Positions 2,455 through 4,455 of a stretch of DNA of 4,455 nucleotides are shown one piece after another (the stretch's first letter is position 1; each line of letters begins with the position of its first letter). A model generated the notes under the pieces. The model was not told the origin of the DNA. It saw only the letters and a program-made list of their open reading frames with translations, and ran no database searches. The stretch is from a virus (lineage: Duplodnaviria; Heunggongvirae; Uroviricota; Caudoviricetes), in IMG/VR virus record IMGVR_UViG_2657245015_000009; one strand, given 5' to 3'. Made by a program: the position numbers and the translations under genes.

Positions 2455-2464
2455 ATAAACGACA

Positions 2465-2484
2465 AAACCGCCCGCAGGCGGTTT
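2465..2484 (-). terminator. Perfect 8-bp stem / 4-nt loop hairpin in the I-J intergenic gap, followed on the minus strand by a U-rich run; possible weak intrinsic terminator, attenuator or mRNA-stability element
   Basis: Forward 2465..2472 aaaccgcc pairs with 2477..2484 ggcggttt, loop cgca. On the minus-strand transcript the hairpin is followed by UUUUGUCGUUUAU and then the J SD. The GC core is only 5 bp, so termination is likely partial at best. Confidence 0.3.
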
Positions 2485-2502: not shown

Positions 2503-3174
2503 TCAGCGACCAATCACCACAACCTGACCACCGTCCCCTTCATCTGCCGTGCTAATCTCCTGAGAGACAACACGTGACCCCACGCGCATTTCACCGTACA
2601 GAACGGGCAGAACATTGCCCTGGGCAACCATGTTATCCAGGGAGGAGAAATAGGTGTTCTGTTTGCCGTTATCCGTTGTCTGTGTACGGGGAGTTCTGGC
2701 TTTCGGTGCCAGCATCTGCGCCACACCACCGAGCACCATACTGGCACCGAGAGAAAACAGGATGCCGGTCATACCACCGGCCCCAATGGCTGCCCCCCAT
2801 GCTGCAAGGGTGGCTCCGGCAGTAAAGAATGATCCGGCAATGGCGGCTGCCCCCAGGACAATCTGGAATACACCACCTGACTTGGCCCCGGCGACTCTGG
2901 GAACAATATGAATCACAGCGCCATCAGGCAGAGTCTCATGTAACTGCGCCGTTAACCCGGACGTGCTGACGTCCCGCCCGGCAATCCGTACCTGATACCA
3001 GCCGTCGCTCAGTTTCTGACGAAACGCCGGGAGCTGTGTGGCCAGTGCCCGGATGGCTTCAGCCCCCGTTTTCACACGAAGGTCGATGCGGCGACCAAAT
3101 CGTTGTAAATCCCCGTAAAGGCAGATGCGCGCCATGCCCGGTGACGCCAGAGGGAGTGTGTGCGTCGCTGCCAT
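2503..3174 (-). CDS. I: Tail tip assembly protein I (lambda gpI-like), 223 aa, ubiquitin-like beta-grasp N-terminal domain ending in Gly-Gly followed by a Gly/Ala-rich hydrophobic segment
   Basis: Complete ORF in track (223 aa, [29 protein letters not shown]...), recognised as lambda gpI; same length as lambda I. Start ATG 3174..3172 with a GAGG-type SD about 11 nt upstream. Sits 60 nt upstream of J, as in lambda. Confidence 0.93.
   Translation of the reverse strand: MAATHTLPLASPGMARICLYGDLQRFGRRIDLRVKTGAEAIRALATQLPAFRQKLSDGWYQVRIAGRDVSTSGLTAQLHETLPDGAVIHIVPRVAGAKSGGVFQIVLGAAAIAGSFFTAGATLAAWGAAIGAGGMTGILFSLGASMVLGGVAQMLAPKARTPRTQTTDNGKQNTYFSSLDNMVAQGNVLPVLYGEMRVGSRVVSQEISTADEGDGGQVVVIGR
2707..2871 (-). 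other. Gly/Ala-rich hydrophobic segment of I (about 55 aa) with small-xxx-small spacing; possible membrane-insertion or glycine-zipper region
   Basis: VFQIVLGAAAIAGSFFTAGATLAAWGAAIGAGGMTGILFSLGASMVLGGVAQMLAP directly follows the GG and is followed by a polar C-terminal domain. Confidence 0.5.
2872..3135 (-). other. Ubiquitin-like beta-grasp domain of I (approximate bounds), ending in Gly-Gly (codons 2872..2877)
   Basis: The segment from [14 protein letters not shown] to IHIVPRVAGAKSGG has the length and hydrophobic pattern of a ThiS/MoaD/ubiquitin-like fold and terminates in GG. Confidence 0.55.
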
Positions 3175-3815
3175 TTGTCGGTATACCTCTCTCGTTTGCT
3201 CAGTTGTTCAGGAATATGGTGCAGCAGCTCGCCGTCACCACAGTAAATGGCGGCATGATTCGGCACCGATGAACCAAAACAGCACAGCAGCACATCGCCC
3301 GGCTGCGCCTCTGTCAGTGCGACACGGTAAAAACCAGTAGCCTCCATATTGTCAAGATAGAGATTCTGACCGTGACGCCACCAGTCATCCCCGCGATGAA
3401 AATTCGGCATCTCAATCCCCGCCAGATGATAAGCATCCCGGAACAGCGTGTAACAGTCCGTCACCCCGTGCTCAAAGCGCCGCCCGGTGAGATGCGGCAC
3501 ACAGCGGAACTTATGAATCGTCCCCCGGCAGACCAGCCACCACGGCAAATCACTCTGCACCTGCAGCCGCCGGTCAGCCTCACTCAGCCAGGGCAGACCA
3601 CCGGGGTGGCTGTGGACCAGCGCCACAATCTCACCCTGCATTTCTGCCTGCAGCCAGTCCTCCGGAGCCATCCGGAAATAATCCTCCGGCTCACCGGAAA
3701 TATTCACGCAGGGAAAATATCTTTCCCCCTCCGGCGCTCTCACCACGAAGCCGCACGACTCCGCTGGCGCACATCGCCGGGCGTGCGCCAGAATCGCTGA
3801 TTCTGTCTCTGTCAT
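3072..3815 (-). CDS. K: Tail tip assembly protein K (lambda gpK-like), 247 aa from the ATG at 3815; JAMM/MPN metallopeptidase domain fused to NlpC/P60 cysteine peptidase domain. Alternative internal start at 3671 would give 199 aa
   Basis: Track ORF 3072..3857 (261 aa) begins at a TTG that overlaps L; the first ATG (3815..3813, [14 protein letters not shown]...) lies 4 nt after the L stop. JAMM motif H-x-H-x7-S-x2-D present ([14 protein letters not shown]). NlpC/P60-like Cys (DCYTLF) and His (VPNHAAIY) present. Stop TGA at 3074..3072. Overlaps the start of I by 103 nt out of frame. Confidence 0.88.
3153..3485 (-). other. NlpC/P60 papain-like cysteine peptidase domain of K (approximate bounds); candidate catalytic Cys codon 3453..3455, His codon 3255..3257
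   Basis: Cys in [17 protein letters not shown] and downstream His in [17 protein letters not shown] fit the order and spacing of an NlpC/P60 Cys-His-His triad. Assigned by recognition, not alignment. Confidence 0.6.
3186..3189 (-). promoter_or_regulatory. Candidate Shine-Dalgarno (GAGG within AGAGAGG) for I, about 11-nt spacer, embedded in K coding sequence
   Basis: Minus strand reads ACGAGAGAGG-TATACCGACAA-ATG. The spacer is rather long, so this is tentative. Confidence 0.4.
3513..3812 (-). other. JAMM/MPN (JAB) metallopeptidase domain of K (approximate bounds); signature [14 protein letters not shown] at 3573..3614
   Basis: H-x-H-x7-S-x2-D motif read directly from the translation, with Glu residues upstream; domain boundaries are approximate. 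Confidence 0.7.
3682..3687 (-). promoter_or_regulatory. Strong internal Shine-Dalgarno (GGAGGA) upstream of the in-frame ATG at 3671 inside K
   Basis: Minus strand reads GCC-GGAGGA-TTATTTCCGG-ATG-GCT (Met63 of the track [17 protein letters not shown]...). This could drive a 199-aa K isoform or simply be the historical annotation start. Confidence 0.45.
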
Positions 3816-3819
3816 GGGA

Positions 3820-4455
3820 TTACTGCGAAAGTTTGTTAATGGAAAGGAAGCCGCCAAAGTTGCCGACGTTATTGCGAAACTTACAGCCGCTCAGGCATTT
3901 GCTGCATTTATCCTTCGTGATATCGGACGTCGGCTGGTCATATTCATCCGCGACTGCCGGACCGTGATAACCGCACTCATCACCGCGATAGGTCCAGGTG
4001 CAGGTGTTGGCCAGCATGATACGCCCCGGAAAAACAGCGCCATCCGTTTCCGTCGGCGTGGACAGTACAAAGGAGGCACTCACCGCGCTCAGTTCGCTGC
4101 ACTGCTCGATGCGCCAGCGGCTGATCACCTCCTGCTCCGGATCGGCGTCTCTGTTTCCGTTGACGAAGTTCACCGCATCCAGAAAACGGGCGTAAACCTT
4201 ACGCCGGACCACCGTTCCGCCGACCAGACTCTGCATATCTTCCACCATACCGGTGACCATGCCGTACAGGTTAGAGACTGCCAGCGTGGGCCGCGTACTG
4301 GTGCCTTTGCCATTCAGTTCAAAACCGCTCCCCTGAATGGCCCTTCCCGTCATGTGAAAGTTGAAACCACCGACGGCGTGGTTCAGCTCTCCGGTACCGT
4401 CGATTCCCAGGCACAGAGCGACCGTGCTGAAAGTATCGCCAAAGCGGTAGATGGT
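3820..4455 (-). CDS. L: Tail tip protein L (lambda gpL-like), 5'-partial: the N-terminus lies beyond the window end; C-terminal Cys-rich region present
   Basis: Track ORF 3820..4353 (177 aa, ...[18 protein letters not shown]...[12 protein letters not shown]...[12 protein letters not shown]...SINKLSQ) recognised as gpL. The same frame stays open upstream from 4354 to 4455 ([34 protein letters not shown]), so the track's Met at 4353 is internal. Stop TAA at 3822..3820. Confidence 0.9.
3883..4002 (-). other. Cys cluster in the C-terminal domain of L (Cys codons at 4000..4002, 3973..3975, 3904..3906, 3895..3897, 3883..3885); candidate iron-sulfur ligands
   Basis: The pattern C-x8-C ... C-x2-C-x3-C ([10 protein letters not shown] ... 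CSKCLSGC) is read from the translation; gpL-family proteins have been reported to coordinate an Fe-S cluster through C-terminal cysteines. Confidence 0.6.

Follow-up and report, generated by a model that had tools for sequence, protein, structure and literature searches.

The question raised by this locus is how two neighbouring phage tail genes can share 103 nucleotides (nt) in different reading frames, and whether both proteins are really encoded, and constrained, by the shared bases. The locus lies in a 4,455-nt stretch of the phage record IMGVR_UViG_2657245015_000009, called the window here, in which the tail genes K and I are encoded on the minus strand. We put the probability at roughly 80% that the overlap belongs to a lambda-type module and is dual-coded, that I is initiated independently at the ATG at 3174, that the long overlap is a derived state produced by extension of both genes, and that the constraint on it is split into two parts. 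The overlap itself was already known, being a canonical, long-annotated feature of lambda-type phages. What we add is modest, namely the evidence for a clade-derived trait, the preference for Met1 over Met14 as the start of I, a constraint that appears one-sided over 39 nt and then two-sided over 61 nt, and a predicted helical tail of K.

Geometry of the overlap and the start of gene I

The features needed for the discussion are as follows, all on the minus strand.

3072..3815, minus strand: gene K, 247 amino acids (aa) from MTETES, with Pfam matches to Prok-JAB and NlpC_P60; phage 21 annotates an equivalent 744-nt coding sequence
2503..3174, minus strand: gene I, 223 aa, with a Lambda_tail_I match over residues 14-97
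3072..3174, minus strand: K/I overlap, 103 nt, I in the -1 frame relative to K (from the open reading frame (ORF) listing and direct translation)
3186..3191, minus strand: Shine-Dalgarno (SD) sequence GAGAGG of I, in K codons Arg-Glu-Arg, 11 nt upstream of the ATG
3172..3174, minus strand: start ATG of I (Met1, here ATG1), inside K codons AAA-TGG (Lys-Trp)
3133..3135, minus strand: ATG of Met14; a start here would give a 64-nt overlap
3073..3075, minus strand: GTG of Val34, overlapping the K stop (GTGTGA)
3136..3174, minus strand: overlap part A, 39 nt, I codons 1-13 over K residues 214-227 (last helix and strand of the NlpC/P60 domain)
3075..3135, minus strand: overlap part B, 61 nt, I codons 14-34 (first ubiquitin-like strands) over K residues 227-247 (clade-specific C-terminal tail)

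K consists of an N-terminal JAB/MPN deubiquitinase-like domain and a C-terminal NlpC/P60 peptidase domain. I has a 13-residue N-terminal extension, a ubiquitin-like domain (residues 14-97), a Gly/Ala-rich hydrophobic linker and a C-terminal plug domain at about residues 133-223. The JAB domain of K was predicted to release the ubiquitin-like domain of I at its C-terminal glycine (Iyer et al. 2006, PMC1779556), and experiments on the enzyme-substrate relation have been described in a conference report from the Davidson group (PMC12908700). With K cleaving the ubiquitin-like domain of I, the overlap joins the 3' end of the enzyme gene to the 5' end of the substrate gene. In cryogenic electron microscopy structures of virions, only gpI residues 134/135 to 222/223 are resolved, as a trimeric plug, and gpK, which is no virion component, is not seen; the gpI chains of 9e7m begin at residue 133.

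The K stop is the TGA at 3074..3072 and the I start the ATG at 3174..3172. Each I codon begins one base upstream of a K codon, so that position 3 of K is position 1 of I and position 2 of K is the wobble position of I. An earlier reading made from the letters alone, below called the sequence-only reading, had reported the same coordinates, the out-of-frame sharing of 103 nt and the embedding of the I SD in K, and all of these are borne out by the ORF listing and translation. It had also called the stretch unusually long, which holds relative to other K/I modules, although the feature itself is textbook lambda annotation. The lambda record gives K at 14276..14875 and I at 14773..15444, with an annotated ribosome-binding site (RBS) for I and an identical overlap geometry, and the phage 21 and VT1-Sakai records annotate the 103-nt overlap as well, that of phage 21 again with an RBS for I. 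Both overlapping ORFs are real genes. Our literature search returned no paper discussing the overlap itself or the N-terminus of gpI.

The functional start of I is most likely the ATG at 3174, because both this start and its SD are conserved. ATG1 is invariant in 166 unique lambdoid sequences and in nine divergent lineages (see below). The K codon that precedes the Trp always ends in A, being AAA in seven lineages and otherwise CAA (K Gln) or AGA (K Arg), which are not common Escherichia coli codons for these amino acids; the first A of ATG1 is the only base that the K protein sequence leaves free. The core of the SD (GAGG or GGAG) is found in 9/9 lineages, even where the K residue after Glu is Gly, Ile or Val. 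The predicted duplex with the anti-SD amounts to -8.5 kcal/mol for ATG1, compared with -2.5 kcal/mol for ATG14 and -2.2 kcal/mol for GTG34. I would accordingly be translated by independent initiation at ATG1, using the GAGAGG within the Arg-Glu-Arg codons of K.

The sequence-only reading had offered Met14 as an alternative start, in which case the overlap would be 64 nt and the 13 upstream codons would never be translated. This position is the ancestral start of the family, with 44 of the 63 distant full-length homologues (35-53% identical; hand tally from a library search) beginning at the residue aligned to lambda Met14, and the Pfam domain begins at residue 14 too. The largest NCBI cluster is moreover the 210-aa form starting at ATG14 (P0012, 5268 members), against 1140 members for the 223-aa form from ATG1 (P0006), and I residues 2-13 have no protein-level conservation. 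We nevertheless consider a start at Met14 improbable for the lambda-type phages. While ATG1 is invariant, codon 14 is ATG in five of the nine lineages, CTG (Leu) in three (Stx-phage, that is, Shiga toxin phage, Edwardsiella and one Salmonella lineage) and GTG (Val) in one (Yersinia). In 38 unique junctions, ATG1 is the sole ATG, GTG or TTG from the upstream stop to 25 codons into the I alignment, and there is no SD before Met14. Even if Met14 were the start, 64 nt of real dual coding would be left. A variant that we rate marginally higher, but still as unlikely, is that lambda-type phages initiate at both Met1 and Met14 and make two I isoforms, with and without the 13-residue leader. Both ATGs are indeed present in lambda, Citrobacter and some Salmonella lineages, and with an unconstrained leader the leaderless form probably works; set against this are the missing SD upstream of Met14, its dispensability in 4/9 lineages, and the fact that no isoform data were found.

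Turning to how initiation at ATG1 would relate to the translation of K, the sequence-only reading had supposed that the overlap couples I translation to K. In this scenario I would be made only when K is translated, fixing the K:I ratio. The I RBS does lie inside K, so that ribosomes translating K must cross it, and other clades have the short overlaps of 4-26 nt that are typical of coupling. However, the K stop is not close to the start but lies 100 nt beyond ATG1 (61 nt beyond Met14), and reinitiation would need long backward scanning, which makes termination-reinitiation implausible. Nor does the I RBS appear to be masked or absent, given its own SD with a duplex of -8.5 kcal/mol and a weak local fold. 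The 131-nt initiation region folds at -28.9 kcal/mol compared with a shuffle mean of -35.4 kcal/mol, less stable than 195/200 shuffles (z=+1.9). The site is thus predicted to be open, K translation would not be needed for opening it, and passing ribosomes would occlude it rather than activate it. Coupling as the purpose of the overlap is therefore improbable, and the supposition is not supported. A programmed -1 frameshift giving a K-I fusion, by analogy with lambda G/GT, is far less probable still and we give it hardly any weight. Relative to K, I does occupy the -1 frame, which stays open over the 36 nt that precede ATG1, and K-I fusion proteins occur in databases and are mentioned by Iyer et al. 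2006 (PMC1779556). Yet the 139-nt region with both frames open contains no slippery X XXY YYZ heptamer and no homopolymer run of at least 5, and I has its own conserved start and SD. In the database fusions the point of frame switching varies and nearly every sequence is a singleton, a pattern that indels or sequencing errors would produce, and no defined, conserved trans-frame product is found among them.

Two other lines were tried and rejected. GTG34 as the start of I would remove the first ubiquitin-like strands, the distant homology runs from residue 14, and there is no SD. The open I frame over codons 1-13 was also discarded as evidence of translation, the K amino acids nearly barring stops there (from inspection of the K codons).

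Selection on the two reading frames

For the substitution analysis, nine lineages were compared by counting Fitch parsimony changes per site on a neighbour-joining tree. The baselines were 80 upstream codons for K-only and codons 36-90 for I-only sequence, and the two parts of the overlap were counted over I codons 2-13 (part A) and 14-31 (part B). The changes per site, with K1, K2, K3 and I1, I2, I3 denoting the codon positions of the two genes, are:

K-only baseline: K1 1.34, K2 0.91, K3 2.73; K3 variable at 76/79 sites
I-only baseline: I1 1.71, I2 1.18, I3 3.36; I3 variable at 54/55 sites
Part A: K3=I1 2.00, K2=I3 0.58, K1=I2 1.00
Part B: K3=I1 1.44, K2=I3 1.28, K1=I2 0.56

In part A, the third positions of K change at a near-normal rate (2.00 vs 2.73, p=0.13), and the wobble positions of I, which are second positions of K, have a rate of 0.58 vs the I3 baseline of 3.36 (p=6e-7), tracking the second-position rate of K. 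On these counts only the K frame appears to be selected here, the I leader drifting with the synonymous sites of K and not being conserved as a protein. The leader accordingly differs among lineages: Stx phages have MATTNAFCLASPP, a Salmonella prophage MATNDTFSLAAPR.

The situation is different in part B, where all three position classes are suppressed. The I-synonymous sites change at 1.28 vs 3.36 downstream in I (p=2.5e-5), like second positions elsewhere in K, and the K-synonymous sites at 1.44 vs 2.73 upstream in K (p=0.001), like first positions elsewhere in I; the K1/I2 sites, at 0.56, are below both baselines. This pattern indicates purifying selection on both proteins, with each site evolving at the rate of its stricter role. 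Part B evolves as slowly as the catalytic core of K, and nt 71-80 from the I start are invariant in the nine lineages. The second positions of K have a rate of 1.28 in the K tail vs 0.91 elsewhere in K, a difference that is not significant, and the I leader is less constrained than the end of the K domain. Comparisons of the lambda, Stx and Citrobacter consensus types match the nine-lineage pattern. The sequence-only reading had held that dual coding constrains the evolution of both proteins and that a codon-position-specific analysis would reveal it; this is what we find in the 3' two-thirds of the overlap, in both frames, whereas the constraint on the 5' third (I codons 2-13) is confined to K.

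An alternative explanation for the low variability of the overlap is mosaic recombination, that is, a recently shared segment rather than dual-coding selection. Lambdoid phages are mosaics, the divergence between lambda and Stx phages jumps from 15% to 39% directly after the K stop, and one K-only window is as conserved as the overlap. What makes this explanation improbable is the behaviour of the flanks. The synonymous-type sites are nearly saturated on both sides of the overlap and dip only inside it, so that a single recombination boundary does not explain the trough. The profile is a trough instead of a step and depends on codon position, which agrees with selection on both frames in part B.

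A parsimony count over 143 sequences, which implied a near-unconstrained K tail, was rejected. It is due to recurrent or recombinant polymorphisms (K Tyr/Cys237, Val/Ala241 and Arg/His229) in two shallow clades, and the result is reversed by per-site diversity, by the consensus comparisons and by the nine deep lineages.

Clade restriction and proposed origin of the long overlap

To see how far the arrangement extends, 441 loci were gathered from scans of viral contigs and of a genome collection and from annotated records. A first viral-contig scan with I gave only near-identical loci, and the search was repeated with I proteins of the Stx, PhiR12_2, Aeromonas and HK022 types. The genome-collection scan returned mostly lambda DNA contaminating unrelated assemblies, with about 12 informative loci. 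Identical or near-identical copies of I on short, mostly low-coverage contigs (L084-L097, L107-L109, L111, L114-L116, L118, L119) carry labels such as Collinsella, Neobacillus, Pseudoxanthomonas, Paenibacillus, Bradyrhizobium and Shewanella, among others, and are almost certainly contamination by lambda control or cloning DNA. Two chromosomal copies, from E. coli ECMA0423 and Shigella SFBU1023 (L112, L117), were dropped as decayed and frameshifted; their many frameshifts reflect either decay or low-quality assembly.

An ATG at -103 from the K stop is present in all of the 143-166 unique lambdoid junction sequences with intact K and I, and the few junctions lacking the overlap are decayed, truncated or fused copies. 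Among the variant junctions (L182, L181/L246), an indel just before the I start has joined K and I in frame in one IMG/VR contig, and in another K is truncated 54 nt short of the I ATG. The 103-nt overlap is shared by Salmonella (Gifsy-like), Edwardsiella and Yersinia prophages, the K proteins of which are 69-75% identical. In the nine divergent lineages the length is 103 nt in 8/9, the remaining one, a Salmonella lineage, having 97 nt.

For comparison with more distant modules, every locus was positioned by two anchors, the residue that opens the ubiquitin-like domain and an Arg-His pair conserved close to the C-terminus of K. Relative to the first anchor, the unique junctions fall into the following classes.

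Lambda-type (n=48): K ends 64 nt past the anchor
Aeromonas-phage pAEv1818-like, found with the pAEv1818 I protein as query (n=46): K ends 4-5 nt past the anchor
Other junctions (n=7): K ends 14-20 nt past the anchor
HK022-like and Pseudomonas (n=31): the K stop is 333-790 nt upstream of the anchor

The annotated overlaps agree with this, being 8 nt in Aeromonas pAEv1818, 20 nt in Salmonella slyngel and 26 nt in Klebsiella Webervirus, with moron genes between K and I in HK022; siphophages outside the clade that carry K and I thus have overlaps of 4-26 nt or none. In the HK022/HK97-like phages the junction is opened and 0.3-0.8 kb of moron genes are inserted (HK022, L121, 868..1188; 31 HK022-like and Pseudomonas loci), which means that a tight junction is not needed for K/I function in general.

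The alignments locate the difference in both genes. Distant K proteins (HK022, Aeromonas, T1-like and Webervirus) end within a few residues of the lambda-type 'WRHRAW', where the lambda-type K reads on, and 22 residues follow the 'RH' anchor in lambda-type K vs 3-12 elsewhere. The Met14 ATG sits in the K 'GCA TGG' of WRHRAW, at the very point where K ends in the other clades. Outside the clade the K tail is missing, and the 13-residue leader of I is missing from most distant homologues. Judging from these comparisons, the ancestral I start is the Met14 position, which can still be recognised in the window, and the lambda-type clade has the long overlap as a derived trait. The overlap length is 1 mod 3 in lambda-type modules and 2 mod 3 in most other clades, and since the frame relations differ, the junction must have been remodelled and not have arisen by simple loss of a stop codon. 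In the scheme that we propose, K at the ancestral junction would have ended a few bases past an I start at the Met14 position. K would then have been extended by about 17-19 codons downstream across the first strands of the I ubiquitin-like domain, and the I start would have shifted 13 codons upstream into the end of the K NlpC/P60 domain. The order of these steps is inferred from the sequences compared.

One further feature concerns the extension of K:

3084..3128, minus strand: predicted C-terminal alpha-helix of K, residues 230-244, AlphaFold2 (AF2) predicted local distance difference test (pLDDT) about 85; missing in K outside the lambda-type clade

The AF2 model of K, built with 56 homologues, has a mean pLDDT of 87.8 and a predicted template modelling score (pTM) of 0.84. 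Its two halves match the archaeal JAMM deubiquitinase JAMM1, solved with the ubiquitin-like substrate SAMP2, and the MepS NlpC/P60 peptidase, and before the tail it contains a helix at residues 213-218 and a strand at 219-225. The residues S231, A232, F233, T234, G235, I236, N238, D239 and L240 are invariant or nearly so in the 56 homologues. This conservation, the predicted helix and the constraint on second positions together suggest that the K tail is functional. The helix might even contribute to the working of the enzyme-substrate pair, perhaps by docking I or the tail-tip complex; its conservation and the double constraint are compatible with this idea, which we regard as speculative and unlikely. 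If it were correct, the overlap would lock an element of the protease and a part of its substrate into a co-evolving unit that recombination cannot split.

Several points weigh against the overall reading of an independently initiated, dual-coded and derived overlap. As regards the start of I, the invariant Trp codon of K partly fixes ATG1, leaving only its first base as a free test; direct protein data on the I N-terminus were sought and none were found, one virion mass-spectrometry set holding a single gpI peptide; and the N-terminal part of gpI is cleaved off before the virion is complete. As regards selection, nine lineages are few and not fully independent, recombination among lambdoids inflates parsimony counts, the 143-sequence count gives an I-synonymous rate in part B of 2.10, near its baseline of 2.50, and the total substitution density of the overlap, 1.18 per site, is equalled by one K-only window. 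Finally, a predicted helix in the K tail does not prove function, and the AF2 model of I is unreliable (pLDDT 39; residues 1-13 coil, first strand 14-19).

The locus nevertheless offers a clean, well-sampled case of a real overlap longer than 60 nt that is not a start-site error. It would illustrate how a short junction can become a long overlap when both genes are extended, and how one-sided and two-sided selection can occur within a single overlap. For the engineering of lambda tail genes, it implies that any change across 3075..3135 is non-silent in at least one frame.

Neighbouring genes, annotation and known systems

The window carries, on the minus strand, a partial lambdoid tail-tip module consisting of L (cut by the window end, stop at 3820), K, I and J. 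The L-K-I-J order on one strand is seen from the Pfam matches, Phage_tail_L being followed by Prok-JAB plus NlpC_P60 and then Lambda_tail_I. J starts at 2442 with a protein beginning MGKGS, and the neighbours in deposited annotations concur. At the DNA level, the window shares 96.9% identity with phage 21 and 95.7% with the lambda h434 imm21 hybrid, the coordinates of which agree in this region with those of the lambda reference. The I protein equals lambda gpI (PDB 8iyk chain I) except for one residue, I164T, and K is 94-98% identical to the lambda-type K clusters. In some prophages among the loci L098-L110, K is 91-95% identical to that of the window and I is identical over its first 25-50 and last 75 residues, with only 44-76% identity in the middle (residues ~50-150, window ~3027..2725, covering the second half of the ubiquitin-like domain and the linker), which points to mosaic exchange or fast evolution within I.

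An Rfam scan of the window gave no match, and a promoter and terminator scan found none inside or adjoining the K/I overlap. In the 60-nt spacer between I (stop at 2503) and J (start at 2442) positions 2484..2457 of the minus strand contain a GC-rich hairpin, AAACCGCC-TGCG-GGCGGTTT, succeeded by a T-rich tract. In the phage 21 record a terminator is annotated at the corresponding place; our simple terminator scan did not mark this hairpin. Two antisense ORFs on the plus strand, 3036..3272 (78 aa) and 3125..3340 (71 aa), span the overlap. Neither homology nor any signal supports them, and we regard them as products of chance in GC-rich coding sequence.

The practical value of the analysis lies in the annotation of the I and K starts, which are inconsistent in databases. 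I is given as 223, 210 or 190 aa (P0006, P0012, P0023) and K as 247 or 199 aa (P0276, P0314), each form having thousands of members. Some gene callers pick GTG34, leading to 190-aa products; many 190-aa entries begin at residue 34, and one review treats gpI as having 190 residues. On the comparative evidence, the 223-aa form of I and the 247-aa form of K are to be preferred. The K ORF is open back to a TTG at 3857, and the most likely K start is the ATG at 3815 (MTETES), which lies 4 nt after the L stop and has no SD (duplex +0.7 kcal/mol); this arrangement suggests reinitiation from L. The 199-aa form starts at a Met at 3671..3669 (minus strand) preceded by a strong SD-like GGAGGA (-9.5 kcal/mol) and cuts off the first third of the JAB domain. 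It may represent an internal-start isoform of K.

We finally compare the K/I overlap with known systems. HK022/HK97-like phages, T1-like Drexlerviridae, Webervirus, Aeromonas pAEv1818 and Pseudomonas D14P have homologous K and I genes in the same order, and their products presumably share the enzyme-substrate relation. Their modules differ in the short overlap or the morons in between, in a K lacking the C-terminal helix and in an I that starts at the Met14 equivalent. Lambda G/GT belongs to the same late operon, and there too the downstream ORF is in the -1 frame; unlike G/GT, however, K/I lacks a slippery site and a consistent fusion product, and I carries a separate start with an SD. Two frames on one strand are likewise used by lambda Rz/Rz1 and other overprinted same-strand overlaps, part of the arrangement being restricted to a single clade. 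Rz1 lies entirely inside Rz, whereas K and I overlap only at the gene ends, with the main domains outside except for the first strands of I and the end of the K NlpC/P60 domain. Closest are lambda, phage 21 and the Stx-converting phages, which have the same L-K-I-J order, domains, 103-nt overlap, -1 frame, ATG and SD. The lambda reference K is listed as 199 aa from an internal Met, and the 247-aa K holds the full JAB domain. Nothing essential differs from lambda, and the window can be described as a phage-21-like variant (97% nt identity) of the same module.

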